IMG/VR virus record: IMGVR_UViG_3300011008_002712
Length of the DNA: 64,000 nucleotides
Origin: a virus
Taxonomy: Duplodnaviria > Caudoviricetes
Strand: one strand, 5' to 3'
The notes below the pieces were generated by a model, which saw only the letters and a list, made by a program, of their open reading frames with translations, was not told the DNA's origin and searched no databases. Shown piece after piece: positions 1,180 through 49,912 of the stretch. The stretch's first letter is position 1; the number at the start of each line of letters is the position of its first letter. Both the position numbers and the translations under genes were made by a program.

Positions 1180-2742
1180 ATGTATATGTCTAATTCGAAC
1201 ATGAAAGATATACAAGAAGCTAGAAATAATTCTGGCAGAAGCAAAGAAATCGAAATGCTGTTTCATGTGGCGATGAATAAAATAAACACGCATATTAAAG
1301 AAAGTAATTTAAATTGTTCGACAAATATCATGTTTGGAGGATTTATTGATGAATTATATGAACCGGTAAGGCTAATATATAAGAAATCTCAAAATATCTT
1401 TATTATCTATTTTTCTTCTCATTTTATGCACAATGATAATGACAAAATACTGAATGTTATTATTAGGTATATCATAACCACAAACAAAAATAACACGTTT
1501 AAGACTATACCTGAGATAAGAGAAGAAATGAAAAAACTTCCCTTTGATACTCATTATGATGTAGCATTCAGAAACAATTATCTTGTATCTGATTCTCCAG
1601 TTACAAATGGAGTGATATGTGAATCTTGCCTGCGCATCTATCATTGTTCAACTGATTCAGATATGTTTAAGCATGTCGAAAATTATAAATGCCAATGTTC
1701 TCCAGATGGGGGCAAATTGGCATTAATTATTAATGGAAAGAAACAAATGGATCCAAAGAAAATGGATTTTTATAAGAATCTAAATTTAGATGATGTTAAT
1801 AAAGCTAAAAAAGAAAGAGAGCTTCATCAAAAAGCACTTGAACAAATGCTGACAGAAGACGATTTTGAAATAGATACATTTAATGAAGAATGTCTTGAAA
1901 TAATCAATAAGATCATTGAAGAAAATCCAAAGGGCGTCAACAGGAAACCAATCAATGAATTTATTGACAAATATGTAGACAATCAAGATTATATGGCAAT
2001 GATAGCGCAAGCATTCCCCCATCAATATTATAATGCATATAGATATTCTGGTTATGAAAACCAGCAAAAAATCATTAATAATCCGATTATGCATCCAAGA
2101 TGGAAAGAATGGGATTTAGAAACAGAAAAACAAAGAGTAGAAGGAAAAATCAAATATGCAGAACGCCAAGCTGCAAAACCACAAAACATAGAAGAAATCA
2201 TAAACAAATTAGATGTTAAGGAATCAACCAAGAAAAACCTCTCGGCAGCTTTAGAAAACAAAGGCAAAAAAATATCTCGTATGAAAGTAGCAGAATATAT
2301 AGAACAAGCTATAGCTACAAAAGATGAAGAATTCATTAATGTTATGAATGATAACTTCTCTGAAATCTATTTAGAAAGCTTTAAACATATGCATAAATCT
2401 GCGAGATATTATCTTTATAATAATTTCGCTCCCAAATCAGAAAACTTTAACGAAGAATTTAAAAAGAAATATCCAGGAGTAATAAATGAAAAAAGAAGCA
2501 TTCCTAAAATAGTGATCGAACGTGATCCAAATGCAGATGCAGCAACAAAATTAAATACATTTATGAGAATGTATAAACGAATTGGAAACAAAGAATTAAT
2601 ACATGAAGTTAATGATGCTGTATTTCGTGAGGACAGTGAATATATCAAAATGCTTCATGAAGCGTTTAAAGAAAGATTTGCAAAAGTACGTCCAGCATTT
2701 AGTAATTCAACTCTTGATTATCTAGACAAAATTGGTTTATAG
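1180..2742 (+). CDS. hypothetical protein: Zn-ribbon (degenerate SprT-like) N-half plus three ~50-aa helical repeats
   Basis: 520 aa, AAGGAG RBS. CESC...CQC..GGKL Zn ribbon, no HExxH. C-terminal repeats are shared with 8696..9181; ends GL. Confidence 0.8.
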   Translation: MYMSNSNMKDIQEARNNSGRSKEIEMLFHVAMNKINTHIKESNLNCSTNIMFGGFIDELYEPVRLIYKKSQNIFIIYFSSHFMHNDNDKILNVIIRYIITTNKNNTFKTIPEIREEMKKLPFDTHYDVAFRNNYLVSDSPVTNGVICESCLRIYHCSTDSDMFKHVENYKCQCSPDGGKLALIINGKKQMDPKKMDFYKNLNLDDVNKAKKERELHQKALEQMLTEDDFEIDTFNEECLEIINKIIEENPKGVNRKPINEFIDKYVDNQDYMAMIAQAFPHQYYNAYRYSGYENQQKIINNPIMHPRWKEWDLETEKQRVEGKIKYAERQAAKPQNIEEIINKLDVKESTKKNLSAALENKGKKISRMKVAEYIEQAIATKDEEFINVMNDNFSEIYLESFKHMHKSARYYLYNNFAPKSENFNEEFKKKYPGVINEKRSIPKIVIERDPNADAATKLNTFMRMYKRIGNKELIHEVNDAVFREDSEYIKMLHEAFKERFAKVRPAFSNSTLDYLDKIGL

Positions 2743-2751
2743 GAGGAGAAC

Positions 2752-3357
2752 ATGGAAATTGGCAGGTTTTGTTATGATGGAGAATTATCTAATTTGTTTT
2801 ATGACAAACAATTAAGAATTAAAAATAATGGAATAACACACAACAAAATCTGCCAAGTCTTGACAGAACCAAGATATAATCTATATATGACAAAAAAAGA
2901 TGACTGCTATATTCTTACAAGTCGTAAATATGAAGATACATTTGCTAGCATATATATGAATTTTTATGAAAGCAAATATTGCGATTCTTCTTATAAAGAA
3001 ATATCTTTAGCTAGAAATATGATGAATTTTTATTTGATGGTACTTGGTGATTATGTACATAATATAAAAAATTCATTAGCATTAGGCATGATAGAAGATA
3101 AAGAAATAAAAATCAGTTTTAATAGAATAATGGTCGGAAATGAAAAGATGAATTGTCACAAAATTAAATCAATGATAGATCTGAATGATAAGATTGAAAT
3201 CTTTTATAAGAAAAACATTCATTCTTGCATGGTAGGAGATTATTATTGCGTATTTGGTGAAAAAGTTAAAATAATAGGCGGTTCTAATAACAAACTAATG
3301 GCTATTGCAAAAATGATATATAATGTTATGTTAATCTTGAAAGGTAATTTTAAATGA
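2752..3357 (+). CDS. hypothetical protein (paralogue of next ORF)
   Basis: AGGAGG RBS; N-terminus IGRFCYDGELSNLFYD resembles IGALFDGELANILFD of 3354..3842. Confidence 0.8.
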   Translation: MEIGRFCYDGELSNLFYDKQLRIKNNGITHNKICQVLTEPRYNLYMTKKDDCYILTSRKYEDTFASIYMNFYESKYCDSSYKEISLARNMMNFYLMVLGDYVHNIKNSLALGMIEDKEIKISFNRIMVGNEKMNCHKIKSMIDLNDKIEIFYKKNIHSCMVGDYYCVFGEKVKIIGGSNNKLMAIAKMIYNVMLILKGNFK

Positions 3358-3842
3358 AGCAGATTGGGGCACTTTTTGATGGAGAGCTTGCAAATATTCT
3401 CTTCGACGGAAGAAACATTATATGTGTACCAGACTATTCAAATGAATTTATTGCAAACATGTTTTTGCATCCATTCGATGAACTTGAGATAGAAACATAT
3501 ACATATGATGAAAGAATTTCAGTTAACCTAATAAGCGATGTATATGATGGTTTTTTCATTAAATTTTTTACTGAAAGAATTTTTACAAAATATGCTGATG
3601 AAAAATATGTGTTTTATGATTGCATTAACGAGTTATTGGAAATGGTCTATAGATTGTTTATTAATGATTCTATAAATTTCGAAATAGAAGAAATAAAAGA
3701 AACAAAACGTTTCTGTTCTATTATCATAAGAGATTCCAATACTTTTGTTCGTAGTAGCAGAAATGAAAGTTATATAGATTCATTAGAAAATGCGATATAC
3801 AAACTTGTAAATTACTATTACAATGTCACATTTAAGAAATAA
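3354..3842 (+). CDS. hypothetical protein (paralogue of previous ORF)
   Basis: ATGA-type overlap with previous ORF; shared DGEL.N motif. Confidence 0.8.
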   Translation: MKQIGALFDGELANILFDGRNIICVPDYSNEFIANMFLHPFDELEIETYTYDERISVNLISDVYDGFFIKFFTERIFTKYADEKYVFYDCINELLEMVYRLFINDSINFEIEEIKETKRFCSIIIRDSNTFVRSSRNESYIDSLENAIYKLVNYYYNVTFKK

Positions 3843-3963
3843 AATAAATCGTGTTAGAAATGTTCCCATTGTTCTTTGAAGTAGTTAGAGCTTCGGCTAT
3901 GATGAATGCATTTGTTCAGTGCAGGAACATCCAGAAAGCATTTTTATGCTAGAAGAGTGCAGC

Positions 3964-3991
3964 AAAGGCTAGACTTGATTCTAGCCTTTTT
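3964..3991 (+). terminator. intrinsic terminator
   Basis: AAAGGCTAGA-CTTGAT-TCTAGCCTTT followed by T run. Confidence 0.7.
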
Positions 3992-4052
3992 GTTATTAAC
4001 TATTTACAAATAATTTTCTTATGATAAAATAGTAAAAAAAGGAGGATGAAAG

Positions 4053-4514
4053 ATGAAAAGAATATGTTTGTTAGTTTTTTCAATTATGTGTTTTTTCAAT
4101 GTATGTTCTGCACAAGAACCTGCTCCATTTCATGACACTTGGACCATGAGAGAATACTATAAGGAAATAAATAACTATTTATCTCATTTAAAAATCACTG
4201 GATGTTATTTCTATGATGTAGTAAATGGATTAGAAACATATACAGCAATATTTGATAAAAATCCAGATAACATTTTGCTAATTGGTATGATGGATGGGAA
4301 AATAGTACAAATTGTATCGTCCGATGAAAATGAGATGCAATTAAATGATAAAATCTTGGCTACCTTGAATATGTTCGGTGCAAATGCAAAAGAAAAAGAT
4401 TTAATGCTTGCAAAGAAAAATGGAGCAATAATGATCAAAGGGAATGACAGAGATTTTATCATAAGATACGAAAAACAAGACATTCCAACATATATCATTT
4501 ATGCTGCAAAATAA
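4053..4514 (+). CDS. putative secreted protein
   Basis: Signal-peptide-like MKRICLLVFSIMCFFNVCSA; GGAGG RBS; own promoter at 4003..4030 and terminator at ~4521..4551. Confidence 0.8.
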   Translation: MKRICLLVFSIMCFFNVCSAQEPAPFHDTWTMREYYKEINNYLSHLKITGCYFYDVVNGLETYTAIFDKNPDNILLIGMMDGKIVQIVSSDENEMQLNDKILATLNMFGANAKEKDLMLAKKNGAIMIKGNDRDFIIRYEKQDIPTYIIYAAK

Positions 4515-4608
4515 AAAACTAGGCATAGCAAATTTTACGCTATGCCTTTTTAATTTTTGTGTACAATGCTATTTACTTTTGATACAATGAAATCAAAGGA
4601 GTGATTTC

Positions 4609-5100
4609 ATGAAAAAATTGTTGATTGTATTGTTATTCATACCCAATATTTGCTTTGCTATTCCAGTCACAGATATGTCAATAGGAAAATTTATGCATGA
4701 ATTTAATACATGCATTTTGTCAATAACAAATAACAACATTCATGTAACTGGTTTTCATTATTTTTCTAAATTAAATGGACAAGATGTCTATAAAGTAAAA
4801 TTCAACAATAACATAAATTCTAGAATGTATGTATGCTTAAAAAACAATCAAATACAACAATTGCTTTTTATTAATGAGCAATATAATGATGAAGCTCTTA
4901 GACACGCGATAATCAAAGTAAAAGCTTCTCTAATTGCTTTAGGAATCTCACCAGAATCATCTATGAATACAATCACCAAATGTGTAAAAAAAGATGATGG
5001 AAGGGTATATTCGTTTTCAAAACAAGAAAACAGGTTATTGCTTATAGCAGTAGACGACAATGACAAAGAGATTAATTTCCATATATTGGGAGATGAATAA
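4609..5100 (+). CDS. putative secreted protein (paralogue of 4053..4514)
   Basis: Signal-peptide-like MKKLLIVLLFIPNICFA; VTGFHYFSKLNG aligns with ITGCYFYDVVNG. Confidence 0.8.
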   Translation: MKKLLIVLLFIPNICFAIPVTDMSIGKFMHEFNTCILSITNNNIHVTGFHYFSKLNGQDVYKVKFNNNINSRMYVCLKNNQIQQLLFINEQYNDEALRHAIIKVKASLIALGISPESSMNTITKCVKKDDGRVYSFSKQENRLLLIAVDDNDKEINFHILGDE

Positions 5101-5106
5101 TTTTTA

Positions 5107-5736
5107 ATGAATTACGAAGGTATAAAATATTTTGATGAAAAATTCAATCATAAACATGCAGAGCAAATGATACGAACAATCTTTAATGATTTTTCCTTAA
5201 AACCATCAAAAATAGAAAGTGCTCGTACTTGGAATAACTTCTTTATGAATCATGATAGCATGCATAAACTCGCATTCAAAGGAGCATATGTTCCAGACGG
5301 ATTGAAAGTCATTACAAATGATTTGATTTCTCTAATAGAAGAAATAATTGTAGAAAGCTATAAAAAGAATGTTACATTTTTAATACCAATATACGAAAAT
5401 GTTGCGAAAAGCATGATTCAGTCATCTACTGATTCATTTGCTGCAGCTAATTTATATGTCATGGACATGATAAGTTTTGATTATTGTTTAGCTGTTGATT
5501 TTTCAAAAGAAAAGTACATCAAAGTAATTGATGCTATTTTGACTAATCTAGTATCATTATGCTTGATATATAGAATTAGAAATAAAATTTTCAATATATC
5601 TGAAAGTACATTCACACGTAATATTCAATTACTATTGCATAACGGATATATGCAAGAGAAAGTCATTTTGCCATTTGATAAAATAAGTGACCTAGAAATA
5701 GATGATATATATGAAGAATATGATAAGAAGTATTGA
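5107..5736 (+). CDS. hypothetical protein
   Basis: 209-aa ORF in operon order. Confidence 0.7.
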   Translation: MNYEGIKYFDEKFNHKHAEQMIRTIFNDFSLKPSKIESARTWNNFFMNHDSMHKLAFKGAYVPDGLKVITNDLISLIEEIIVESYKKNVTFLIPIYENVAKSMIQSSTDSFAAANLYVMDMISFDYCLAVDFSKEKYIKVIDAILTNLVSLCLIYRIRNKIFNISESTFTRNIQLLLHNGYMQEKVILPFDKISDLEIDDIYEEYDKKY

Positions 5737-5774
5737 AAAATAGTTATTCAAATAAAAAAATTTCAATTTAGCTA

Positions 5775-5803
5775 TTTACTTTCTAAGAATTCTATGGTAG
5801 AAT
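5775..5803 (+). promoter_or_regulatory. tandem promoter P1
   Basis: AAAAAATTTCAA UP-like tract, TTTACT-N17-TAGAAT, extended TG. Confidence 0.75.
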
Positions 5804-14205: not shown

Positions 14206-14550
14206 ATGAAATGGAAAATTTTAAAAACATGGGTAATTCCAACAAGCGAAGAATGGTACAAACAAATAAAAATAGAAATAATTGATGCATATAAACCTTA
14301 TTTGATGTTAAGAGCATTTTACAGCGAAACAATGTTCGGACACGATATCATTGTCTATTTTTATAAAGACAATGCAGAATTTTATGTAAATGACACATTG
14401 ATTGATACATCTTCTGTGTTTTCTTATAGAAAATGCATAAATAAAAACAAATCATTATTTGGTGAATTTTTAAAAGTAAATTTATACCGCTACTACAAAA
14501 AAAGCTTTCATGTCTATAAAAAGAAATGTGTAGTCTTGGAAGGGCTATGA
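14206..14550 (+). CDS. hypothetical protein, GL-terminal group
   Basis: GAGGAG RBS; ends VVLEGL. Confidence 0.75.
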   Translation: MKWKILKTWVIPTSEEWYKQIKIEIIDAYKPYLMLRAFYSETMFGHDIIVYFYKDNAEFYVNDTLIDTSSVFSYRKCINKNKSLFGEFLKVNLYRYYKKSFHVYKKKCVVLEGL

Positions 14551-18843: not shown

Positions 18844-19083
18844 ATGAAAATAACACAAGTATTATGTGGCTGTTTACAAATAGAACATCGGCCGTGGGAA
18901 ATATTTTCGCCAATGCCAATTTACATAGCTGGCGATACTTGCAACACTAAAATAGAAATAGATTTGAGAGAAATGAAGCCAGTAGAATCAAGCAATATAA
19001 ATAAAGAAATTTTAGAAAATGACATGGTAAAGAAATATATAAACAAATGGATTGAAGAACATGTTATTGGTGTTGGATTATGA
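18844..19083 (+). CDS. hypothetical protein, GL-terminal group
   Basis: Promoter plus GGAGG RBS; ends IGVGL. Confidence 0.75.
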   Translation: MKITQVLCGCLQIEHRPWEIFSPMPIYIAGDTCNTKIEIDLREMKPVESSNINKEILENDMVKKYINKWIEEHVIGVGL

Positions 19084-19346
19084 AAACATCTTATAGCGGA
19101 TTGTTGCAACAAGATAAAAATGTGACAATATTAACATGCAATATTACAATATATGATGAAACATATAAGATGTTTATCATGTATAAAAGAAAATCTGATT
19201 CTGGAAGAACGAGAAAAATAATATACGGAAAAACAAAAAATATGTTTCAAGAATTATCACGATATAAAGATATTTCTAAACCATTAAAAAATTTCCTAAA
19301 AGAAAACGATATATTGTTAAATGAAATAAGAATAAATGGATTATGA
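19080..19346 (+). CDS. hypothetical protein, GL-terminal group
   Basis: ATGA overlap; ends IRINGL. Confidence 0.7.
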   Translation: MKTSYSGLLQQDKNVTILTCNITIYDETYKMFIMYKRKSDSGRTRKIIYGKTKNMFQELSRYKDISKPLKNFLKENDILLNEIRINGL

Positions 19347-19609
19347 GAATCACGAAGACATATATAAGAAAAAATTTTGAATTCTTAAAAATAGAACTAG
19401 AATTTCCAAAACAATCTTATAACATTGTTGAATTAAGATGCACATATTTTAAAGAAAAAATGTATCAAATTCATTTTTATATGTGGTTAGATGGGTATGA
19501 ACAAACTATCAAAGAAAATATAAGAAATAAAAAATTAGCAAACAATTTGTGCTTAGCGATAAAAGAAAATGACATGATGAAAATAGTCGTGTTAGAAAGG
19601 GGTTTGTGA
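19343..19609 (+). CDS. hypothetical protein, GL-terminal group
   Basis: ATGA overlap; ends VLERGL. Confidence 0.7.
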   Translation: MRITKTYIRKNFEFLKIELEFPKQSYNIVELRCTYFKEKMYQIHFYMWLDGYEQTIKENIRNKKLANNLCLAIKENDMMKIVVLERGL

Positions 19610-22854: not shown

Positions 22855-23639
22855 AATATATAAATGTATTGAATCATACATATGCTTCTTTGAGCGAAAA
22901 ATTGTTTTCCATTATTTATGATCTTTATCATACACCTTATGAAAACGATCTAAACGATTTCATGGAAGAATCTAAAAAAACATTAAGAAAACTTCTTTTC
23001 AACACACCAGAACAAATTGATGAAAGTGATTATGCATATCATAAACTTAATAATATTATTTATTATCAAAATGGTTTGTGCGAGTGCAATAATAAATATA
23101 TTGATCTTGGAACATTTACTCCGAAATCCAATATTGTCGAAGAAAACATAAGAAAAGTGCCAGATAATGCGGATGAAATTCTTAAATATGCAGAAAATAT
23201 TAGCCACATACATCCATTAGTAGCTTGCCAATTATTTAATTTTGCAAATCCCAATTATAAATTTAAACGTCTCTATAATGGATATAGAGGCAGTTTTGAA
23301 CGCATTATACATAATTGTGAAGTTATACAAAAAGAATTAAACGATCCTAATTCTAGCATGAATGATAGAAAAAAAGAGATCTACAACGATGGTAAGAAAA
23401 TAGCACTAGACATTATGTATCAGATTGTGTCAGATCATCATAATATAGTGCTGATAGATACTAATCATCTAGATGATTTCATAAAGACATATGATGAAAA
23501 ATATTTTGTATATAGCATGAATTTCACTTATGACGAAGAAAATTTTGTAGAATGCGGTAATATTATCATAGACTTCTTAAGAAATCAAAATGATGAAGTA
23601 ATAGATATCGCTGGAAGAATGAGAATATTAGACAGATGA
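22851..23639 (+). CDS. hypothetical protein
   Basis: AAGGAG RBS, ATGA overlap. Confidence 0.75.
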   Translation: MKYINVLNHTYASLSEKLFSIIYDLYHTPYENDLNDFMEESKKTLRKLLFNTPEQIDESDYAYHKLNNIIYYQNGLCECNNKYIDLGTFTPKSNIVEENIRKVPDNADEILKYAENISHIHPLVACQLFNFANPNYKFKRLYNGYRGSFERIIHNCEVIQKELNDPNSSMNDRKKEIYNDGKKIALDIMYQIVSDHHNIVLIDTNHLDDFIKTYDEKYFVYSMNFTYDEENFVECGNIIIDFLRNQNDEVIDIAGRMRILDR

Positions 23640-23980
23640 ATCTAGAACAAATAGTAAAACAAAAATTATTTCTTGCATTAAGAAAAAATCAAATGGTGTG
23701 CAATGAAATAAATTATTTGTATAATGAAAAAATTGATTATAATAGAAGCTATGATTTTTATGTGAGTAATCAATTATACATAAACGCTGAATTTCATAGA
23801 ATCACAGAGAACAGCGATTACACGATTAAAATCATGTTTGATACTGTTATCATATCATCATTTTCTAATTGTTCAAAAAATACATTTCATATAAATGAAA
23901 TTACAGATCATCCATTCTATCATTCTCTAATGATGATACATGATTTTAATGAAAAACGTATATATTTATATGGATTGTGA
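23636..23980 (+). CDS. hypothetical protein, GL-terminal group
   Basis: ATGA overlap; ends IYLYGL. Confidence 0.7.
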   Translation: MNLEQIVKQKLFLALRKNQMVCNEINYLYNEKIDYNRSYDFYVSNQLYINAEFHRITENSDYTIKIMFDTVIISSFSNCSKNTFHINEITDHPFYHSLMMIHDFNEKRIYLYGL

Positions 23981-24067
23981 AAAATAATGCACCAGACAAG
24001 GTTCTGGTGTAAATTTTTTAATGATTAGATTGACATTCTAAAAAATTAATGTAAAGTGGTGAAATAA

Positions 24068-28755: not shown

Positions 28756-29109
28756 TTATAGTCCTTTATACACTAAATCATTGTCAATGCACTTGTTGAC
28801 TAAATTTTCTAATTCATCGAAATAGATAATTTCATCTTCAATTTTGTTATTAATAGTTTTTATGATTTTATTCATCAACTCATTATTAATAACAAATTGC
28901 ATGGGCAACGAATATGATTTTCTACTATTTTTTATGCAAAAAACTTTATAGTGCTTTCCATTTTTCAAGGCTATTTTGCAAGATAAATTTAGATACGTTG
29001 ATTCGTTAAAGATATTGTCACACTCTATGAACATTTGTATTTCATATACAACATAATTATGTTTATTGCTTTTTACGCAGCAATCATCTTCCCATTCTTC
29101 ATATTTCAT
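28756..29109 (-). CDS. hypothetical protein, GL-terminal group
   Basis: Promoter plus AGGTG RBS; ends LVYKGL. Confidence 0.7.
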   Translation of the reverse strand: MKYEEWEDDCCVKSNKHNYVVYEIQMFIECDNIFNESTYLNLSCKIALKNGKHYKVFCIKNSRKSYSLPMQFVINNELMNKIIKTINNKIEDEIIYFDELENLVNKCIDNDLVYKGL

Positions 29110-31544: not shown

Positions 31545-31621
31545 TGGTGACCCTGGTGTGATTCGAACACACGACACAAGGATTAGAAGTCCTTTGCTCT
31601 AGTCCACTGAGCTACAGAGCC
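31545..31621 (-). tRNA. tRNA-Arg(UCU)
   Basis: Cloverleaf, AAGGA-CT TCT AA-TCCTT, TTCGAAT, encoded CCA. Confidence 0.95.
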
Positions 31622-31640
31622 GAATTTTTATGAATAAATT

Positions 31641-31714
31641 TGGAGCGAGTGAAGAGAATCGAACTCTTATTGTCAGAGTGGAAGTCTGGCGTTCTACCAT
31701 TGAACTACACTCGC
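31641..31714 (-). tRNA. tRNA-Gly(UCC)
   Basis: GCGAGTG/CACTCGC, U73, loop CT TCC AC, CCA. Confidence 0.95.
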
Positions 31715-31738
31715 CAATTTACCAAACCTTATGTATCT

Positions 31739-31767
31739 ATTATAATCCAATAGAAAATAAAAGTAAA
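31739..31767 (-). promoter_or_regulatory. promoter for tRNA-Gly/Arg
   Basis: TTTACT-N17-TATAAT. Confidence 0.75.
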
Positions 31768-31805
31768 TAGTTTTTTTCATATTTTCAATGAATTTGTAAC
31801 TCAAA

Positions 31806-31891
31806 TGGAGCTGGATGTCAGATTCGAACTGACGAGGACTTTCGTCTCCGGCTTACAAAACCGGTGCAATCGACCACTATGCGAATCCAGC
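31806..31891 (-). tRNA. tRNA with UGU (Thr) anticodon and long variable arm
   Basis: GCTGGAT/ATCCAGC; CCGGT-TT TGT AA-GCCGG; V-arm GAC-GAAA-GTC; CCA. Confidence 0.85.
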
Positions 31892-31945
31892 ATAAAATAG
31901 ATAAGGTGTTATCTTAATTTGACAACACCTTATCCAATTTTTAAA

Positions 31946-32581
31946 TCAAGGCCATTCGCCAAGAGGACCATTGAGAGAAGTATTTTGACGCTTCAACCAA
32001 GTAAAAGCATAACCTAACTGAAGTGCATCATTTTTCGTTCCAAGCATATCTGTGAATGAAAGTTCTCCAGTGAGACTGTTTGCAATAACAATTGCTACGC
32101 TAACCTTTGGATCTTTAACAACTGGAGCGACTTCTGCTGCGAAAATGTGATTTGTTCCCTTAGTAACTTGCGAACCAAGATAAGCAAATGGCTTAAGATC
32201 CGTTCCAACAAAACCATGAAGGACATCTGTCAGTGCCTTAGATGCTTCTTCTGGGATATCAGTAGTAACATCTACTTTAATGCCACCAAGTTCTCCACCA
32301 GATTCAACAACGCGTTCAATATTTACAAGAGTAGCTTCCATATCGTTTGGCTTCTCGTTGAAAATAAGAACTACAACATTCTTAGTATCTTTTCCAGAAA
32401 GAACAGTCTGTTCTGCAAGCACAGCATGGTTTATTCCATTTACAGATTGCTTTCCAAGATAAGCAATTGCCTTATATTCTACACCAATTAGCTTATCACT
32501 CAAACCACTAAGAGCAGAAGCTACCTTCTGTGGATAACCACTTGTAGATACGTTTACTTCCCATGAACCAAAATTGCTCAT
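31946..32581 (-). CDS. protein with two cystatin-like repeats
   Basis: AYLGKQSVNGINH and AYLGSQVTKGTNH duplicated; GGGAGG RBS; terminator follows. Confidence 0.7.
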   Translation of the reverse strand: MSNFGSWEVNVSTSGYPQKVASALSGLSDKLIGVEYKAIAYLGKQSVNGINHAVLAEQTVLSGKDTKNVVVLIFNEKPNDMEATLVNIERVVESGGELGGIKVDVTTDIPEEASKALTDVLHGFVGTDLKPFAYLGSQVTKGTNHIFAAEVAPVVKDPKVSVAIVIANSLTGELSFTDMLGTKNDALQLGYAFTWLKRQNTSLNGPLGEWP

Positions 32582-32719
32582 AAAAATATATTCCTCCCTA
32601 ATAAATTGACTTTAAATCTTGTTACACAATTAATTTAGAAGTTGTAACATTTGATTTATTATTATCAACTTTTATGTTTTATAAACTTTTTTATAATGAA
32701 ATACTTGATTATTTAAAAA

Positions 32720-32807
32720 TGGAGGAAGCGGAGAGATTCGAACTCTCGGTGGTGTTACCCACTCTTGTTTTCAGGACAAGTACCATAAACCACTCGGTCA
32801 CGCTTCC
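32720..32807 (-). tRNA. tRNA-Ser(UGA) with C33
   Basis: Class II cloverleaf; CTTGT-CC TGA AA-ACAAG; CCA. Confidence 0.9.
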
Positions 32808-32899
32808 ATCATATATCACCATAATAATATTTTTCCAATTGAACAGTTTGAGTACCGCTCCATTAATTTTTATTCTAGTATAAAAAATGAAAATGTAAC

Positions 32900-33589
32900 T
32901 TAGATTATATGGAAAAAAATGAAGAAAAACAACAAAAAGATAATTAATATTTCGACAAATAAAAAAATAAGTTTTTTCCTTGCATCACTATCTTCATATT
33001 CTTTTATCTTATCATTTATAACTCTTTCTAATGGCACAGCTAATAATTTAGCATATTGGCGATTTCCATCATCTGATAAATGCATCTTGTCTTGTTTGTA
33101 AAAAGAATGATTTTTTTCATATTCAAATTTTTCGATGTCAAATGCACTAACATATTCTATGTCATTGTTTTTGCAATAATCTTTGAGCTTGTTTAAATAG
33201 ATTGAAAGAAAATGATTAAATCTAACATCTTCAAATCTCATTTTTCCATATCCACACATTAAAACATTTATACCAGATTTATTGCATTTCTTTATTATTT
33301 TTACAGCGCGTTCAAATGCTTTATTAGCACCATACTCAATGTCAATTTCCAAAAAGAAATCATTTATGCCAACACTAATAATTACTATGTCAGGATGAAA
33401 AGAAAAAACATCTTTTTCCAATTTTTCTAATACATCTATTGTACTATCTTTATTTTCACCCAGATTGCAATAAATGTGTTCTGGGAACATATTGATAAGT
33501 TGATCTAGCCAATGGTTCTCATTTTTAGTAGGAGTTATCCAAAAATCTCCAATTGTAATAATCGTAAGTGCATCTTTCAATTTTTTCAC
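32900..33589 (-). CDS. SGNH/GDSL-hydrolase-like membrane protein (nucleophile Ser apparently absent)
   Basis: GDF in place of GDS; G.ND and D.MH motifs; C-terminal hydrophobic helix. Confidence 0.75.
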   Translation of the reverse strand: MKKLKDALTIITIGDFWITPTKNENHWLDQLINMFPEHIYCNLGENKDSTIDVLEKLEKDVFSFHPDIVIISVGINDFFLEIDIEYGANKAFERAVKIIKKCNKSGINVLMCGYGKMRFEDVRFNHFLSIYLNKLKDYCKNNDIEYVSAFDIEKFEYEKNHSFYKQDKMHLSDDGNRQYAKLLAVPLERVINDKIKEYEDSDARKKLIFLFVEILIIFLLFFFIFFHII

Positions 33590-33683
33590 CTCTTATTTTA
33601 CAAAAACAAGATACAAGAAAAACGAAAAATTTATTTACAAACAAAAAAAAGATGCTTCAATAATGAAGCACCTTTTGTATCTA

Positions 33684-34928
33684 TTAAAATAGGAATTCAA
33701 TTCTTCCAAATAATGTTTTAGCATTATTTCGGTTAAGTGCACTATCATTCTTTCCCTTGAAGTACTTGATAGAAGTAATCACATTTTTGAAAGGTACATA
33801 TTTTGCGCCAACTTCAAAACCTTTTTGTCCTGCACGCATTGCGTCGAAGTGACTACCAAATACAGTATTTTCGCCAAGGTTACGATATGCAGCATATACG
33901 CCGTAAGAATTCTTACGTTCTGGATTTATTCCCTTATAATCAAGTTGTAGCTGCCATGCATTATTACGATAATCTGCAGATGTGTTCTTGGAATAAACGG
34001 CGGAAAATGCTACATTTTTATCAAATGCATATTTTGCATTTACACCCCAAACACGTGCATGATTCTTATTTGCATTCTTTGTATAAGCAAAAGATTCTAA
34101 GTTCTTGCTCTTTAATGCTTGGAATTCTGCACCGCCAACAAATTTGCCAGTATTATGTTTATATTGGATGAACTGATAATTCGCTGTATCGCCATTACCG
34201 TTGAAATATAGGTTATCGGCATATTTGCCGGAATAACGACCTGCACCTAGTTCAACACTATTTTTGCCGAGTACGCCAACTTTCACACCTGAGAATGAAT
34301 CTTCATCGTTATTAAAGATGATGGAGTTATTAACAGGCATCTTGCCGAGACTTGCATTTACCTTGCCAAAATTACCGTTTACATAAACATGCTGCAGGAT
34401 AACCTTGTTTTCATGTTCTTTATCATAATCTTCTTTCATATTGTGATAAGCATCTAAACGAACATGAGCAGTAAAATTATCATTAATTTCAATGCTTGGT
34501 TCTAAGCGAAGTAGAAGTTGGTTATCGTTCAGCTTGATTCCGTTAAAACGCTCAGAACGATATGTATAACGAACTTTACCATTCCACTTTACCATATCAG
34601 CATGTTTCTCAAGATTAGAAACGCGAACACCAAGATTATTAAGCTCTTCGCTAAATTCAGCAGAAAGCTTGTCGATGATAACTTGATGCTTAGCATCTGC
34701 GTTTGCAATAGCACGAGCAGTAGCTTGAGCCATTTCATAACGAGTCATAAGACGATCGCCGCGATATGTGCTATCCCCATAACCTTCAATAATACCGTCA
34801 TCAGCAAGCTGTTGAACCGCATCATAAGACCAATGATCTCTTGGGACATCTGAAAAAGGATTCGCAGCAGCGAAAGCCACACTTGATGTTGCAATTAACA
34901 TCATGATTGCAATTAATATTTTCTTCAT
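33684..34928 (-). CDS. OmpM/Mep45-like outer-membrane porin with SLH domain
   Basis: Signal peptide; NPFSDVP.DHWSY.AV..L...GIIEGY...TRYEMAQ SLH; LSAEF.EEL..LGVRV coil; beta-rich C-terminus ending in Phe. Confidence 0.92.
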   Translation of the reverse strand: MKKILIAIMMLIATSSVAFAAANPFSDVPRDHWSYDAVQQLADDGIIEGYGDSTYRGDRLMTRYEMAQATARAIANADAKHQVIIDKLSAEFSEELNNLGVRVSNLEKHADMVKWNGKVRYTYRSERFNGIKLNDNQLLLRLEPSIEINDNFTAHVRLDAYHNMKEDYDKEHENKVILQHVYVNGNFGKVNASLGKMPVNNSIIFNNDEDSFSGVKVGVLGKNSVELGAGRYSGKYADNLYFNGNGDTANYQFIQYKHNTGKFVGGAEFQALKSKNLESFAYTKNANKNHARVWGVNAKYAFDKNVAFSAVYSKNTSADYRNNAWQLQLDYKGINPERKNSYGVYAAYRNLGENTVFGSHFDAMRAGQKGFEVGAKYVPFKNVITSIKYFKGKNDSALNRNNAKTLFGRIEFLF

Positions 34929-35142
34929 GAAAACGCACCTCTAAAAATTATATTTACGCGGTTTTCATCAAGAGTGTCCAGGTTTCCTCTTCAAAACCAC
35001 GCAGTTATAAAATATTGCGTGTTTATTCAAAAATAACAGTTTGCTTTAATTTATTTATCTATTTTTTTACATAAAAAAAGACCAAGAATAAATCTTGATC
35101 TTCTTGAAGGATATGATGATATTATGATTGTAAAAACCCTAT

Positions 35143-35217
35143 TGGTGATCCCTAAGAGAATCGAACTCTTACCTTCGCCGTGAAAGGGCGACGTCTTAAC
35201 CGTTTGACTAAGGGACC
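35143..35217 (-). tRNA. tRNA-Glu(UUC)
   Basis: TCGCC-CT TTC AC-GGCGA; CCA; promoter at 35245..35273. Confidence 0.95.
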
Positions 35218-35313
35218 ATATGATCAATTTGAACATACAATTTTATTATAAACCATTTTTACATTTTTGTAAATAATTTTTTTAATAAAATAAAAATAAA
35301 AAAGGAGAAAATT

Positions 35314-36306
35314 ATGATAAAAGTATCAGAACTTACTCAAACACCAGATAACAAATATATTTGTCCTTATTGCCAAAAAATATATAGCAAGCATGGAATT
35401 GCTACTCATATTTGGAGAAATCATACAGAAGAAGGCAAAAATTTTAATCCTGATTCTAATAGAGGCTATAGAGATGGTACTAGAACAGTTTGGAATAAAG
35501 GATTAACGAAAGAAACTAATAAAAGCGTTGCTAAAATTGGTAAAACGCTTACAGAAAAATACGCTACTGGAGAAATTGTTAGTAATTGTCATAAACATAC
35601 AGAAGAAGCAAAAGAAAAAATTAGACAAGCAAGAAAGAAAACTCTGTCTAAAAAAGGGAAAATGCCTAATAAGAAAAAATCTTGTTATGAAAACCGTATT
35701 CTAAGATTGTTAAAAGAAAACAATATACAAGAAAATTATGTCAATAATTACAAGATTTCTTACAAAGAAGAAAAAACTAAAACATATTGGTATGACATAG
35801 CTTTTCCTGATTTATTACTAGACATAGAAACAGATGGCTGGGAACATGAAATTCAAAATCATGTTGAAAGCGATCAGTACAGAGATTATTTAAGTATCAA
35901 ATATGGATGGAATGTACTAAGACTCAAAAATAAAGAAATAAAAGACTGGAGCGACAATCAACTTTTATCAGTTATTTTAGATGAAATTGAGAAAGCAAAA
36001 GTTGACATAGAAGAACGAAAATTAAAGTATGAAAAAAATCCATATCTGCATAAGAAAAAATCTAAGACTATAGAACAAATAAAACAAGAGCGCATTAAAC
36101 TCGCTAAAGAACGTGTAGAAAAAATAAAAAAAGCTAATATTGATTTTTCTGCTTGGAAATGGCGTGCAAAAGTAGCTGAGATATTAAATATATCTCCACA
36201 AAAAGCCGCTAATTTTGTTAAAAAATGGATGCCAGAAATTTATGAAACATGCAAAAAACATTCAAAAAAAGGAACCCTAATGGGGTTCCTTGTTATTTTT
36301 TGGTAG
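35314..36306 (+). CDS. putative homing endonuclease (C2H2 finger + NUMOD3 + DUF559/Vsr-like nuclease)
   Basis: CPYC..H...H; WNKGLTK; HTEEAKEKIR; YDIAFP..DIETDG.EH..D..RD..GW.VLR. Confidence 0.8.
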   Translation: MIKVSELTQTPDNKYICPYCQKIYSKHGIATHIWRNHTEEGKNFNPDSNRGYRDGTRTVWNKGLTKETNKSVAKIGKTLTEKYATGEIVSNCHKHTEEAKEKIRQARKKTLSKKGKMPNKKKSCYENRILRLLKENNIQENYVNNYKISYKEEKTKTYWYDIAFPDLLLDIETDGWEHEIQNHVESDQYRDYLSIKYGWNVLRLKNKEIKDWSDNQLLSVILDEIEKAKVDIEERKLKYEKNPYLHKKKSKTIEQIKQERIKLAKERVEKIKKANIDFSAWKWRAKVAEILNISPQKAANFVKKWMPEIYETCKKHSKKGTLMGFLVIFW

Positions 36307-36377
36307 GGGCGGTGGGAGTTGAACCCACGACTTCCGGCTTATAAGGCCGATACTCTGACCTGCTGAGTTACACCCCA
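36301..36377 (-). tRNA. tRNA-Ile(UAU), U1.U72 mismatch
   Basis: TCGGC-CT TAT AA-GCCGG; A73; CCA. Confidence 0.85.
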
Positions 36378-36704
36378 ATTATATTTGTACTATTTCAATG
36401 TGTGTATATAAACAAAATAGTAAACCTAAACAAAATTATCAATGAAAATTTCTCTAAATGTTTATTTGAATCTACAAACTTTACAATTTATTATTTTATT
36501 TTCTTTTGTCTTTATAATTTTGTTTTTAAAGAAATGCTGAGTTTGTTTCTATTTTCATATAAGTTTTCCAGCAGCATTAAATCATTTTTATAAACAAAAA
36601 CACATGCTCTAAAAAATCATGCTCAGTTATTAAAATTGAAACATTACACAAAATAAATCTGCATGTCAATAATTTCTTGACATGCAGATAAAACATTTAT
36701 GGTT

Positions 36705-36757
36705 TGTTGGCGAAGAGTAAAATTTGAAAGATGAAAAAGGAACTCTTTATGCCAACA
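36705..36757 (-). ncRNA. conserved stem RNA, copy 1
   Basis: UGUUGGC-AUA-AAGAGU-UCCUUUUU...U-ACUCUU-C-GCCAACA. Confidence 0.65.
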
Positions 36758-36808
36758 TATATGTTAAATAAAATTAAAATGATTTTATAAACATTTTTTG
36801 TTAAATGC

Positions 36809-37927
36809 TTAAATTTTTGTGATAAAACAATTATCTAAATCTATAGTCAATGGAGTCTTTAATCTATTAAATTGTCTTATCTTATTTGTTAAATTATTAA
36901 TATCAAAAATACAACCCAAATATTGTTTGATGCATTTAATTTTATTGCTATTTATCAGTGATACTGTATATCCAAGCTGACGAAATGCATTTATATATTT
37001 ATCAACATATTGTTGTTCATATAATCCTTTAATTTCAAAAACATGTTTATCAATAACAAAATCACAAATATAAGTTTTCTCTTCATCAGATGCTCGTACA
37101 CTTTCATAAGAGAAATCAATATCCAGTAATTTCAAAAAACATGCAAAAATAAATTCATAAGTACTTCGTAACCAAATTTTTTCTCCATGATAAATAATAA
37201 AACATCCTCTGCCTCTTGGAGAACATATTGTTGGTACTTTTATCTTCCCGGTTTTATATCCTTGTTTTCTTGATATTGATTGTTTTTGATATTGTCTATC
37301 AAGTTCTTCTTGCGATTTATTATTATATGTACGTTTATAAGTTCTAACTCTTTTTTCTATAGATTCTTTTGTTTGAAGCGATTTCCAAGATCGTTTTGCA
37401 CTTTCATATCTTGGATCATTTTTTGTAATACCTTTTGACCATCCTTGATGTCCATCAAATGGTTTCCTTGGTTCGCGTTTTAAATGAGCTTTGCAATAAC
37501 TACAATGAGCTCCGTAACCACTTTGATTTTCAAATTTACGACCACATTCACATGTATACATTGGATTTAATGTAATATCATTATCTTTTAAAAATTTATT
37601 AACTGCATTATAATTAACATCAAAATGTTTTGATAATTCTTGTTTTGATGCTGTTGGATGTTCTTGCAAATATTGCAAAATAGAGTCTTTATCTAAAACA
37701 CCATTATAATGATGACGTTTTATTACTGGTTGAGAAGGTTTTTTTCTTTTAAAACATATCTTCCAAATTTCCGGATAACATGTTTCTAATGTTTTTTGTA
37801 ATGTTCGATAATCGCAATTTATTATTTCTAACGATTTACCTAACCAACCAAACTGCGTAAAATCGATACCAGCATCTATCAACTCTGGTATCCGATTAGA
37901 AATTTCTTCTTTTGTCAAATTAATCAC
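36809..37927 (-). CDS. putative homing endonuclease (HTH, Zn finger, NUMOD-like, PD-(D/E)xK nuclease)
   Basis: RSTYE..YE..YICDF..EIKG; N-terminal IDF..FGW module. Confidence 0.75.
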   Translation of the reverse strand: MINLTKEEISNRIPELIDAGIDFTQFGWLGKSLEIINCDYRTLQKTLETCYPEIWKICFKRKKPSQPVIKRHHYNGVLDKDSILQYLQEHPTASKQELSKHFDVNYNAVNKFLKDNDITLNPMYTCECGRKFENQSGYGAHCSYCKAHLKREPRKPFDGHQGWSKGITKNDPRYESAKRSWKSLQTKESIEKRVRTYKRTYNNKSQEELDRQYQKQSISRKQGYKTGKIKVPTICSPRGRGCFIIYHGEKIWLRSTYEFIFACFLKLLDIDFSYESVRASDEEKTYICDFVIDKHVFEIKGLYEQQYVDKYINAFRQLGYTVSLINSNKIKCIKQYLGCIFDINNLTNKIRQFNRLKTPLTIDLDNCFITKI

Positions 37928-37986
37928 CTGTATTATTTTAGGTGAAAATTTGTAATGCTAATTCGTTAAACTAAAAAATACAAAAA

Positions 37987-38073
37987 TGGTACCGGCTCCG
38001 GGACTTGAACCCGGACGGGATTTCTCCCAGGGGAGTTTAAGTCCCCTACGTCTTCCGATTCCGTCAAGCCGGC
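37987..38073 (-). tRNA. tRNA-Leu(UAA)
   Basis: Class II; GGGGA-CT TAA AC-TCCCC; A73; CCA. Confidence 0.95.
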
Positions 38074-38079
38074 ACTTTT

Positions 38080-38143
38080 AGGCTTAGCGGAAAGTAATCA
38101 TTTATCCCAAAAAATGTAAAAAGGAACTTTCTATGCCAAACCT
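38080..38143 (-). ncRNA. conserved stem RNA, copy 2
   Basis: AGGUUUGGC-AUA-GAAAGU-UCCUUUUU...U-ACUUUC-C-GCUAAGCCU; starts just after the promoter at 38153..38181. Confidence 0.65.
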
Positions 38144-38247
38144 TATAAATTTATTATAATACATTATGAAGCAAAAGTAAACCGTTTTTTGTACATTTTC
38201 AAGTTATTTTGCAACTCAAATTTTTTAAAATAAATTTGGTGATATAG

Positions 38248-38979
38248 ATGGGAAGAAATTATTGGGAAGGTAAACATCATACAGAAGAAACAAAAGAAAA
38301 AATAAGAAGAAGTGCTTTAAAAAATAAAACAAAATTTACAAACAGATTTAAAGCGAAAAGTATTTCCAATTTAGAAAAAAGAATCATTGATTTGTTGAAC
38401 TTACATAAAATTACCGGATGGGAAAACGATTATGTAGTTTTTTACAGAGAAAATAAAAACTTTTTTAGAAGATATCTATATGACATAGCTTTTCCTGATT
38501 TGCTAATAGACATAGAGACAGATGGATGGGAACATAATCTAAAACATAGAAGAAAAACAGACGCAGTCAGAGATGAAATAAGCAAAAAATATGGATGGAT
38601 TGTATTACGCTTAAAATCAGAAGATATGAATTTATTAGAAGATGATCATCTTTTTTGTATGATACAAAAAATAATTGAAGAAGCAAAACATTCTATCGAT
38701 AAAAGAAAGCAATTATGGGATTCAAATCCTTATTTTGCTTGGAAACAAAACCAGAAAATAAGAAAAACAAAAGAAGAAAGAAAACAAGAATTTTCTCAGC
38801 TAGTGCAAACAAGGATTCAACAAATAACAGCTTCTAACATAGATTTCTCTAAATGGGGATGGAGTAAAGAAGTTTCAAAAATTATTGGAATAACACCACA
38901 AAAAAGTGCTTCTTTTATTAAAACATACATGCCAGAAGTTTATGAAACATGTAAAAAACAAACGAAAAAGGAGAGATAA
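38248..38979 (+). CDS. putative homing endonuclease (NUMOD3 + DUF559/Vsr-like), paralogue of 35314..36306
   Basis: GKHHTEETKEKIR; YDIAFPDLLIDIETDGWEH. Confidence 0.8.
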   Translation: MGRNYWEGKHHTEETKEKIRRSALKNKTKFTNRFKAKSISNLEKRIIDLLNLHKITGWENDYVVFYRENKNFFRRYLYDIAFPDLLIDIETDGWEHNLKHRRKTDAVRDEISKKYGWIVLRLKSEDMNLLEDDHLFCMIQKIIEEAKHSIDKRKQLWDSNPYFAWKQNQKIRKTKEERKQEFSQLVQTRIQQITASNIDFSKWGWSKEVSKIIGITPQKSASFIKTYMPEVYETCKKQTKKER

Positions 38980-39114
38980 CTACTCTCCTTTTTCTTCTTT
39001 ATTTTCTTCTCTTTGTTTTCTAATTGCTTCAACCTTGGCTTCAATTACAGGAATAGTATCGTTTTCGCTGTCGATTTTGTTATATTCTGGAATTTCGTTT
39101 TTATTTTCACTCAT
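38980..39114 (-). CDS. small acidic hypothetical protein
   Basis: GAGG RBS before ATG 39114 (MSENKNEIP). Confidence 0.5.
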   Translation of the reverse strand: MSENKNEIPEYNKIDSENDTIPVIEAKVEAIRKQREENKEEKGE

Positions 39115-39140
39115 AATATAAACCTCTTCAATGAATTTTT

Positions 39141-39214
39141 TGGCACGCCCATTCCGATTCGAACGGAAATCAATGGTTTTGGAGACCATCACCTAGCCGC
39201 TCGGTCATGAGCTC
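39141..39214 (-). tRNA. tRNA-Trp(CCA) with G1.U72 and A2xG71
   Basis: ATGGT-CT CCA AA-ACCAT; G73; CCA. Confidence 0.85.
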
Positions 39215-39219
39215 TATGT

Positions 39220-39295
39220 TGGCTCCTCGAACAGGACTCGAACCTGTGACATTCTGATTAACAGTCAGATGTTCTACCGACTGAACTATCGAGGA
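39220..39295 (-). tRNA. tRNA-Asn(GUU)
   Basis: TCTGA-CT GTT AA-TCAGA; G73; CCA. Confidence 0.95.
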
Positions 39296-39298
39296 GTA

Positions 39299-48366: not shown

Positions 48367-48407
48367 CCTTTCTTATTAATTTTAACACACCAAAACAAAA
48401 AAGTAAA

Positions 48408-48716
48408 CTACATTAATTGCTTAAATATATCATGTATGTATTTGCTATTATTTTTAATGATACGTAATACATCTTCGTAATATTTTGTTAATAGGAGTTC
48501 ACAAGATACTGCCAATAACAAACAACCAACATTTTTTTTGATTGCTTTATATGTATCAGCAGAAAATGTTCTTCTGTATATGTTTTTGTCATAAAAATCT
48601 AATGATATCGTATTAGATTGTTTATAAACATTAATTGAGAGTTTCTTATATATGACAATGGAAAACTTATTTTCATAGATATACAAACGTTGTTTCGTAT
48701 TGACAGTATATTTCAT
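48408..48716 (-). CDS. hypothetical protein
   Basis: AAGGAGG RBS before MKYTVN. Confidence 0.65.
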   Translation of the reverse strand: MKYTVNTKQRLYIYENKFSIVIYKKLSINVYKQSNTISLDFYDKNIYRRTFSADTYKAIKKNVGCLLLAVSCELLLTKYYEDVLRIIKNNSKYIHDIFKQLM

Positions 48717-48787
48717 AATTAATCCCTCCTTATCTATTAGATAAATAAATAACATCATTACTGTATATAAACTTGGAGGTATATCAC

Positions 48788-49273
48788 ATGTCAATATTTA
48801 GTGATGCAAAAGCAGATCAATTTGTGTATGATGAAAATTACGACTATATTAACAACAAAGAAAAAAAGACTATTGTTGAACCAATTGTAGCATATAAAGT
48901 CCATGAAACTTTTGAAGTAGCAAGTGATAGGAATACTTATGGACCATTTAATTCTTTGGTAAACAAATTAATGGATGCTATAAAGAAACAAGTAAAGCTT
49001 GATCAGTTTGATGAAACAAAGTATAATGAAGATACATATAAGAATTTATTCGTAGATTTTCAAAATGCTGCTCTTGAAATGATCAAAGAAAAATTTGATA
49101 ATTTTGGATACGGAGAAGCTTCAAAAATTGAAGCAACAAAGGAAGATTTTATTGTCTATCACAATAATCCAAATTATAGCGGTGGTCCCATTGCTGGGAA
49201 AAATTATGATATTGTGGAAAAAGCTACTGAAGGTACTGAAGGTAGCGGAGACCCCCTCGAACCAGAAGGTTAA
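48788..49273 (+). CDS. hypothetical protein
   Basis: GGAGG RBS; terminator hairpin at 49277..49303. Confidence 0.8.
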   Translation: MSIFSDAKADQFVYDENYDYINNKEKKTIVEPIVAYKVHETFEVASDRNTYGPFNSLVNKLMDAIKKQVKLDQFDETKYNEDTYKNLFVDFQNAALEMIKEKFDNFGYGEASKIEATKEDFIVYHNNPNYSGGPIAGKNYDIVEKATEGTEGSGDPLEPEG

Positions 49274-49302
49274 TAAAAAGCTGCTCTTAATGAGCAGCTT
49301 TT

Positions 49303-49665
49303 TTATGCTGTTTCCAAAAATTTTGATCTTATATACAAAAGATTTATGTCTTTGATATCTTCGTCATTGTTTTCTCTAATACAGTAATTTGATAAAATTT
49401 CTTTAATATGCGGTGAGTAATGCTCATAGTATTTGCTTAATTCATTCATTTTGCAAAATTCAACTCCAAGCTGAACCATCACGAAATCAAATGATTTTTG
49501 TAAATCTTCTAATGTTTTGATGGGAGTAGATACTATAACATTGCATAAATGTTGTTCGTGCATAAATAAATCAAAATTCAAGAAAGTGTTGATTGAAAAT
49601 AAATCGTTATTATTTTTTGTTGAAATGATAAGGTTAAATTCATCAAAAGGTAGTTCTTGGTTCAT
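49303..49665 (-). CDS. hypothetical protein
   Basis: GAGGA RBS. Confidence 0.7.
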   Translation of the reverse strand: MNQELPFDEFNLIISTKNNNDLFSINTFLNFDLFMHEQHLCNVIVSTPIKTLEDLQKSFDFVMVQLGVEFCKMNELSKYYEHYSPHIKEILSNYCIRENNDEDIKDINLLYIRSKFLETA

Positions 49666-49666
49666 G

Positions 49667-49912
49667 TTAAAATCCTCTTTCTACTGCATATGCATTATCA
49701 TAATCTTCAAAAGCATCTTTTAGACAGCGATATCTATGTACATTAAATGAAAAAAAATTATTTTCTGTATATAATACAGAGAAATCATATTGATTTTTCA
49801 TAATTAATATCACGGTGAGATTACAAAAACATCGTCCTGCTAATATAACGCAATCTTTAAATTTATTTTGCAATAACATAAAATCTTGCATTGTTAAGTC
49901 TTTAAGTTTCAT
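49667..49912 (-). CDS. hypothetical protein (ends RGF)
   Basis: AAGGAG RBS before MKLKDL. Confidence 0.65.
   Translation of the reverse strand: MKLKDLTMQDFMLLQNKFKDCVILAGRCFCNLTVILIMKNQYDFSVLYTENNFFSFNVHRYRCLKDAFEDYDNAYAVERGF

Follow-up and report, generated by a model that had tools for sequence, protein, structure and literature searches.

In this article, we describe a class of mostly small phage proteins that have little in common except the way in which they end, with a glycine followed by a hydrophobic residue such as leucine at the very C-terminus. The whole stretch of DNA that was analysed (the window, 64,000 nucleotides) corresponds to bases 223,998-287,997, read on the reverse strand, of a 416,024-bp IMG/VR virus record (IMGVR_UViG_3300011008_002712; GC 29.7%, CheckV completeness 99%), and 10 of its 95 called genes end in Gly-Leu where the internal Gly-Leu dipeptide frequency of 0.0033 predicts about 0.3, in agreement with a sequence-only reading of the window that had counted about 10 of 90 open reading frames (ORFs) against fewer than one expected. 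We favour the view that this tail is a docking handle, read at the free C-terminus by a shared partner, and would give it a probability of roughly 45%; its main rival is that the tail merely caps a helix in a single protein family that has exploded beyond recognition.

The pattern extends well beyond the window. Genes were called with a simple codon-usage caller, one and the same for all phages including the controls, and in the whole 416-kb phage 32 of 530 genes end in Gly-Leu when 1.7-1.9 would be expected from residue or internal dipeptide frequencies (binomial P 1.2e-29), so that the genome-wide enrichment proposed as a check on the earlier reading is there, with Gly-Leu the most frequent C-terminal dipeptide and three-fold ahead of the next. 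The carriers sit in a plastic arm of the genome, 28 of the 32 Gly-Leu genes lying at 199-312 kb, while the first 175 kb contain not one. Across the genome, a penultimate Gly followed by a non-hydrophobic last residue is found at background level only, and since penultimate Gly is raised solely in Gly-hydrophobic ends, there is no general Shine-Dalgarno-like GG effect.

The closest catalogued phage is Bacillus phage G, with 35% identity on a DUF2201 metallopeptidase-vWA protein, and the tail-bearing lineage itself is a clade of giant rumen/gut phages. Two relatives in IMG/VR, analysed over almost their whole length, were found through an alignment of the RNA ligase (single-protein scans of IMG/VR and of a phage collection with the 520-aa protein listed below and the RNA ligase returned nothing): a 504-kb sister phage with 77% identity on the DUF2201 protein, in which 84 of 695 genes end in Gly-Leu (P 4e-103) and a further 13 in Gly-Tyr and 12 in Gly-Phe, and a 281-kb cousin (45% identity) with 17 Gly-Leu, 10 Gly-Ile and 7 Gly-Met ends among 349 genes. 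The class takes 5-17% of the genes in the phages of this clade, or 30-120 carriers per genome. Four AT-rich control phages show no Gly-Leu excess, namely phage G (1/581, first 450 kb), the 462-kb LR756500.1 (2/527, first 400 kb) and two phages of 170-190 kb (0/256 and 2/253), from which we conclude that the pattern is real and lineage-specific and not an artefact of AT-richness or of the caller. A literature search did not find a description of such a protein class.

The twelve ORFs named by the sequence-only reading, ten with Gly-Leu ends and two variants, were reproduced in their translations, tails, last codons and stops, and a scan of all ORFs of at least 25 codons found no further credible Gly-hydrophobic tail in the window. 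They are as follows (L001 is a 166-kb close relative of this phage).

1180..2742, plus strand: 520-aa protein ending ...DKIGL, the sole large carrier in the window, without a Pfam family
14206..14550, plus strand: 114-aa tail protein ending ...VVLEGL, from the translation
18844..19083, plus strand: 79-aa tail protein ending ...IGVGL, first of a tandem trio, its stop overlapping the next start (ATGA)
19080..19346, plus strand: 88-aa tail protein ending ...RINGL, second of the trio
19343..19609, plus strand: 88-aa tail protein ending ...LERGL, third of the trio
23636..23980, plus strand: 114-aa tail protein ending ...YLYGL, with relatives found only at 89% identity or above
28756..29109, minus strand: 117-aa tail protein ending ...VYKGL
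39711..40049, minus strand: 112-aa tail protein ending ...LRYGL (...LRCGL in L001)
40034..40267, minus strand: 77-aa protein, the Gly-Met variant, ending ...QWCGM, with the same tail in L001
41721..42038, minus strand: 105-aa tail protein ending ...FHLGL
47472..47828, minus strand: 118-aa tail protein ending ...LSYGL, overlapping the end of a peptidyl-tRNA hydrolase gene
49667..49957, minus strand: 96-aa (or shorter) protein, the Gly-Phe variant, ending ...VERGF

Features and turnover of the tail class

When the three genomes are pooled, 200 of the 1302 proteins of at most 320 aa end in Gly-hydrophobic, and these carriers are distinct as a group: their lengths peak sharply at 90-120 aa (other small proteins are flat), they are basic (median pI 8.8 vs 6.2 in other small proteins) and rich in aromatic residues (15.7% vs 11.1%, P 5e-31) with lower Asp/Glu and Ala/Gly/Pro, and their genes have a GC content of 24.2% vs 29.0%. 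Gly stands at the penultimate position (-2) in 31% of all proteins of 70-140 aa in the three phages and in 2-4% at each neighbouring position. The position-specific signal of the tail reaches about 13 residues back from the C-terminus, and no common signal is present at the N-termini of the carriers. Among the 32 Gly-Leu proteins of this phage (which were selected for that end), position -6 is hydrophobic in 91% (Ile, Val or Leu in 28 of 32), -5 in 62% and -3 in 44%; positions -7 and -11 are also hydrophobic, -8 is frequently Phe and -9 polar. The hydrophobic moment over residues -20 to -10 peaks at 100 degrees, and the class-averaged profile from -22 to -3 at 90 degrees (3.2 vs 0.3-0.7 at 150-180), a periodicity by which an amphipathic helix appears to run right up to the Gly.

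Structure prediction agrees with this in part. An AlphaFold2 (AF2) model of an eight-member sub-family from the sister phage (seven sequences aligned; pLDDT 64, pTM 0.55) has a four-strand meander, two helices and a short last helix at residues 88-94 followed by I-G-L, with low confidence at the end; Foldseek found nothing similar to it at E of 0.001 or below, and the best VIA-align match (Z 5.4) reflects a generic sheet-plus-helix arrangement only. The model of the trio protein at 19343..19609, with its end drawn as a strand, was too poor to use (pLDDT 48).

The bodies in front of the tails are as dissimilar as the sequence-only reading had described, and BLAST, body-only phmmer, iterated hidden Markov models (HMMs) and trimmed hhalign reveal no hidden superfamily. 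By BLAST, 154 of the 200 carriers are singletons; in iterated HMM searches the carriers of the window stay isolated and the largest tail-rich sub-families have at most nine members; and hhalign among seven sub-families with the tails trimmed gives a maximum probability of 1.7%, equal to that of unrelated controls. Pfam matched none of the ten window tail proteins, and in a scan of 125 tail proteins against Pfam and PHROGs no family was matched by more than one member. Three tail proteins searched against 5.8 and 1.84 billion proteins retrieved near-identical relatives or an in-genome paralogue only.

Homology between the sister phages is correspondingly rare for this class: a homologue in the sister phage exists for 4 of 32 tail proteins and, in a second comparison, 2 of 94, whereas the other small proteins reach 53 of 140 and 55 of 188, and the tail proteins are thus replaced or diverge far faster than their neighbours. 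Where bodies can still be aligned, the earlier expectation that homologues would keep the terminal Gly-Leu holds in the body-homologous pairs listed here. The 520-aa protein has an orthologue in the 504-kb sister (521 aa, 52% identity) that keeps the Gly-Leu end (the homologue in the 281-kb cousin, 373 aa, is without that C-terminal part); the protein at 14206..14550 has, among 1.84 billion representative proteins, a single relative, the in-genome paralogue ending ...FYEGL; the sole relative found for that at 47472..47828 is a cluster mate, 93% identical and with the same tail; and the three proteins of the trio (18844..19609) have an E-N-D motif and the Gly-Leu end in common. Conversely, the sister-phage homologue of the Gly-Phe variant at 49667..49957 ends ...MEQNF, the Gly being gone, and a 213-aa protein bears a canonical tail in place of its C-terminus where its orthologue in the sister phage ends otherwise.

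Several observations on individual carriers can be added here. In the sister phage, as many as seven genes with Gly-Leu ends (76-94 aa) follow one another directly (in L020-L022, L025 and L044; for example at 45,648-47,495), with overlapping stops and starts, and neighbours in these runs are mostly not kin detectable by BLAST. In the window, a terminator-like hairpin (23988-24011, plus strand) directly follows the tail gene at 23636..23980, and a near-consensus extended -10 sigma-70-like site (TTTACA-17-TATAAT with TG; 29158-29130, minus strand; a consensus match only) lies 21 nt 5' of the tail gene at 28756..29109, promoter-like sites overall being no commoner than in shuffled sequence. A thioredoxin reading of the end ...FYTQWCGM at 40034..40267 was rejected, as this end matches the consensus of the tails and recurs unchanged in L001, an identity that also excludes a sequencing error.

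Handle, helix cap or by-product

The reading that we prefer involves a two-part design, in which an alpha+beta body of some 80-100 residues, variable and altering beyond recognition even between sister phages and probably in contact with diverse host or rival targets, would be joined to a constant C-terminal amphipathic helix that is closed by hydrophobic-x-x-x-Gly-hydrophobic and at which the chain stops. The capped helix end together with the free carboxylate would then be the handle for one common partner, slightly different in each phage. Such a partner would be a machine of the phage or of the host that serves loading, localisation or timed removal, and the bodies may be effectors.

Two results in particular point this way. 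First, the requirement that the motif sit at a free C-terminus is supported: hydrophobic-x3-Gly-hydrophobic occurs 103 times at the exact C-terminus vs 1-4 times at each offset of 1-7 residues, and since the bodies are saturated with substitutions, losses of the stop codon must have arisen and been purged, so that the free end itself appears to be under selection. Second, the last residue differs by phage, being Leu in this phage, Leu with Phe and Tyr in the sister and Leu about equally with Ile, Met and Val in the cousin (chi-square P 1.7e-7; 4.5e-6 among BLAST singletons), while other proteins show no parallel shift, and a shift of this kind is expected if one reader is involved. An exact stop after the cap and a phage-specific last residue both exceed what a helix cap needs and therefore favour a shared reader, toward which the canonical tail on the 213-aa protein and the Gly-Leu kept in the sister orthologue of the 520-aa protein also count.

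The strongest competitor is a purely structural tail, a possibility that we take seriously while holding it tentative, by which one lineage-specific small alpha+beta protein exploded, no common partner exists, and the Gly (as left-handed C') and a hydrophobic C'' packing on C3 are the last residues of a fading sequence signal. In a Schellman loop at a helix C-cap, hydrophobic residues at C3, Ccap and C'' form a 'hydrophobic triangle' (PMC9951308, citing Aurora and Rose 1998). The tail equals this pattern, with an amphipathic helix end, a hydrophobic C3, two further positions, an often-hydrophobic Ccap, Gly at C' and a hydrophobic C'', and the helical periodicity up to the Gly (moment peaks at 90-100 degrees, not 160-180) and the helix-then-I-G-L end of the AF2 family model both suit it, as do the narrow 90-120 aa length peak, the composition and GC that are distinct over whole bodies, and the tandem arrays and small recognisable sub-families. 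A Schellman cap, however, is internal and found in all kinds of proteins, whereas here the chain ends at C'' in about 200 unrelated-looking proteins of one clade; a cap needs no such stop, yet extensions are absent despite the saturated divergence. We know of no capping rule that requires the chain to end at C''. Nor does a purely structural tail account easily for seven sub-families without a profile-level relation once their tails are trimmed, for a phage-specific last residue that persists among sequence singletons, or for at least one tail swapped onto another protein.

Several points weigh against the handle in turn. No partner was found. The motif is a Schellman cap with a hydrophobic C3-C'' contact, so that structure alone could conserve both the Gly and the last residue; the shared length, basic pI, aromatic content and low GC fit one exploded family that inherited its tail; and descent within each phage could mimic a phage-specific last residue. 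In addition, a tail on a clearly unrelated protein is seen in one or two cases only, when about two Gly-Leu ends per genome are expected by chance, and the structure models are weak.

The search for a reader covered several candidates. The sequence-only reading had proposed adaptors that plug into one hub through their C-termini, and while the dissimilar bodies, the kept terminal tail and the spread throughout genome and clade stood, no hub was identified. Its suggestion of an AAA-vWA chaperone gained no support, since counterparts of the AAA(MoxR) and DUF2201/vWA proteins occur in phage G, which is without the class; a complex prediction of the DUF2201/vWA protein (with Zn and Mg) and the 118-aa tail protein scored 0.00 with an uncertain fold of the partner and speaks neither for nor against binding. 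No PDZ_2 or Peptidase_S41 domain (other PDZ models were not searched) is encoded by the phage, and no ClpP, DnaN (DNA_pol3_beta), ThiF or Prok-JAB in the whole phage, and the ten profiled proteins common to only the three tail-bearing phages (DUF932, PAAR, a deaminase and GIY-YIG, the rest weak or without a match) include no plausible reader.

Known systems resemble the tail in some respects each. Escherichia coli Pol IV ends 346-QLVLGL-351, a tail that binds the sliding clamp (bioRxiv 10.1101/2024.05.30.596738). The likeness lies in the docking of unrelated proteins on a common hub by way of a short, hydrophobic peptide at the C-terminus, with the very same Gly-Leu end in Pol IV; unlike the clamp-binding motif (QL[SD]LF or QLxLxL), however, the tail is missing the defining Gln and has I/V/L at -6, it is apparently helical and not extended, and the phage has no detectable DnaN. 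The tails of T4 gp43, gp55 and gp33 are further C-terminal examples of clamp binding, and to our knowledge there is no precedent for dozens of ORFan clamp binders. As for PDZ class II ligands, P0 is hydrophobic here by the definition of the set and P-2 is so in 44%, and the tail is helical by its periodicity in contrast to the extended strand of a PDZ ligand. Ubiquitin- and Atg8-like modifiers differ in that the sub-family is modelled as a four-strand meander with three helices and not as a beta-grasp, in a phage without ThiF or Prok-JAB. Small-protein expansions in jumbo phages are similar in their tandem arrays of small, fast-evolving genes in a plastic part of the genome, but their members are usually recognisably homologous, whereas here only the last 7-13 residues are shared.

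A bolder version of the handle, which we consider doubtful, is a clade-specific addressing system in which the free, Gly-hydrophobic capped helix routes 5-17% of the genes to one machine, the cargo being a fast-changing arsenal of small basic effectors. Loading into the giant capsid and co-injection with the DNA would be an example, and the tail would then be the C-terminal equivalent of the capsid targeting sequence (CTS) of T4, while the pocket of the reader would change in step with the tail across the phages. The T4 internal proteins IPI-IPIII are likewise diverse, fast-changing, basic and small, with only this short address peptide in common (Rao and Black 2010, PMC3012670). They differ from the class described here, where the shared element is C-terminal, no cleavage is implied and 30-120 carriers are present in each genome. 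The T4 CTS lies at the N-terminus, where the prohead protease cleaves it off, and such proteins are few in T-even phages.

That the tail is instead a C-terminal degron or address for a Clp-type unfoldase (phage or host ClpX), serving the timed removal of early proteins, seems improbable to us. The phage does have a full ClpX of its own with a zinc finger (scoring 420 bits with the clpX model), a diverged AAA+ paralogue, a transfer-messenger RNA (tmRNA; tag ...YAIAA) and a peptidyl-tRNA hydrolase, and by these genes it invests in the handling of C-terminal ends; the tail also shares with ssrA-type degrons a free C-terminus with hydrophobic last residues as the signal. Known ClpX C-degrons, however, end in Ala-Ala and not in Gly-Leu, and a capped, packed helix end would be the opposite of a floppy degron. 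The occurrence of ClpX, moreover, is out of step with that of the class: phage G encodes one, 42% identical, yet is without the tail class, and the 281-kb cousin has the class while tblastn over 280 of its 281 kb found no ClpX. ClpP is likewise missing from this phage. The paralogue, a second ClpX-like AAA+ protein of 360 aa without the zinc finger, is encoded outside the window (genome 314,739-315,821, minus strand), with a counterpart of 58% identity in the sister phage and none in the 281-kb cousin.

Least probable, and close to refuted, is a by-product at the nucleotide level, in which GGR YTA TGA would give the following gene its ribosome-binding and start context where genes are tightly packed in arrays. 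The sequence-only reading had taken the varied codons as a sign of selection on the protein, which is upheld, but the codon choice is constrained, with an excess of GGR, YTA and TGA in the tails (GGA+GGG 82% vs 50%, CTT 5% vs 20%, TGA 47% vs 28%), most strongly where the gene overlaps the next start, as 43 of 133 Gly-Leu genes do. Nevertheless, the Gly-Leu end is equally present in the 50 of 133 that lack a start in the next 25 nt or meet a convergent gene, the GG lies just 3 nt from an overlapping ATG, and the conserved hydrophobic positions at -6, -7 and -11, the lack of Gly-polar ends and the four other compact AT-rich phages without the pattern place the main constraint on the protein, with GGR likely in minor additional use in translational coupling.

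Genes around the carriers

The window is a mosaic from 1 to 48 kb, with scant synteny to the sister phage, and is collinear with it from 48 to 64 kb. Besides the tail genes it holds a C5 methylase gene, an RNA-repair set (Pnkp, Hen1 and an Rnl1-type ligase) and the following features.

31545-39622, minus strand: 12 tRNA genes in two clusters, none a suppressor and most reading A-ending codons (Arg-TCT, Gly-TCC, Thr-TGT, Ser-TGA, Glu-TTC, Ile-TAT, Leu-TAA, Trp-CCA, Asn-GTT, Ile-AAT, Gln-TTG, Lys-TTT)
33684-34928, minus strand: 414-aa protein with an S-layer-homology (SLH) domain followed by a Gram-negative-type porin domain
about 41000-47400: block with a plasmid-type Rep origin-binding domain and superfamily-3 helicase (45059-46432) and numerous tiny ORFs
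46949-47278, minus strand: tmRNA gene with the tag peptide ANEEYAIAA, flanked by the Rep-helicase gene and the tail gene 47472-47828
47815-48366: peptidyl-tRNA hydrolase gene (by Pfam), next after the tail gene 47472-47828
55743-64000, plus strand: AAA(MoxR), DUF2201/vWA protein, two small genes, Hen1 methyltransferase and Pnkp, in this order

In the last of these blocks, which is collinear with the 504-kb sister phage, the HExxH motif of the DUF2201 protein is intact and its vWA domain has a D-x-S-x-S metal site, and Pnkp is a kinase-phosphatase-ligase. The tmRNA and the peptidyl-tRNA hydrolase belong, with the phage ClpX (genome 114,987-116,192), to one set for rescuing ribosomes and tagging C-termini. 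Recoded stop codons were considered for this phage and rejected, as the phage uses all three stops, its long ORFs are uninterrupted in code 11 and none of the 12 window tRNAs is a suppressor. The block at about 41000-47400 has no counterpart in the 504-kb sister, is found in L001 and may be an integrated small replicon. An SLH domain combined with a porin is typical of diderm Firmicutes (Negativicutes), and the 414-aa protein may point to the host or may be an outer-membrane protein that the phage carries.

What the tail would mean

If the tail is only a cap, these phages hold a striking case of a family that diverged until the stop signal of a helix alone survives, and the tail would still be a useful marker of the plastic part of the genome that is probably concerned with interaction with the host. 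If it is a handle, a single short peptide would mark the variable arsenal of a megaphage clade in full, some 200 dark-matter proteins across three genomes that share no Pfam or PHROG family (125 scanned), and it would both point to the machine that handles the carriers and provide a portable tag for sending cargo there.

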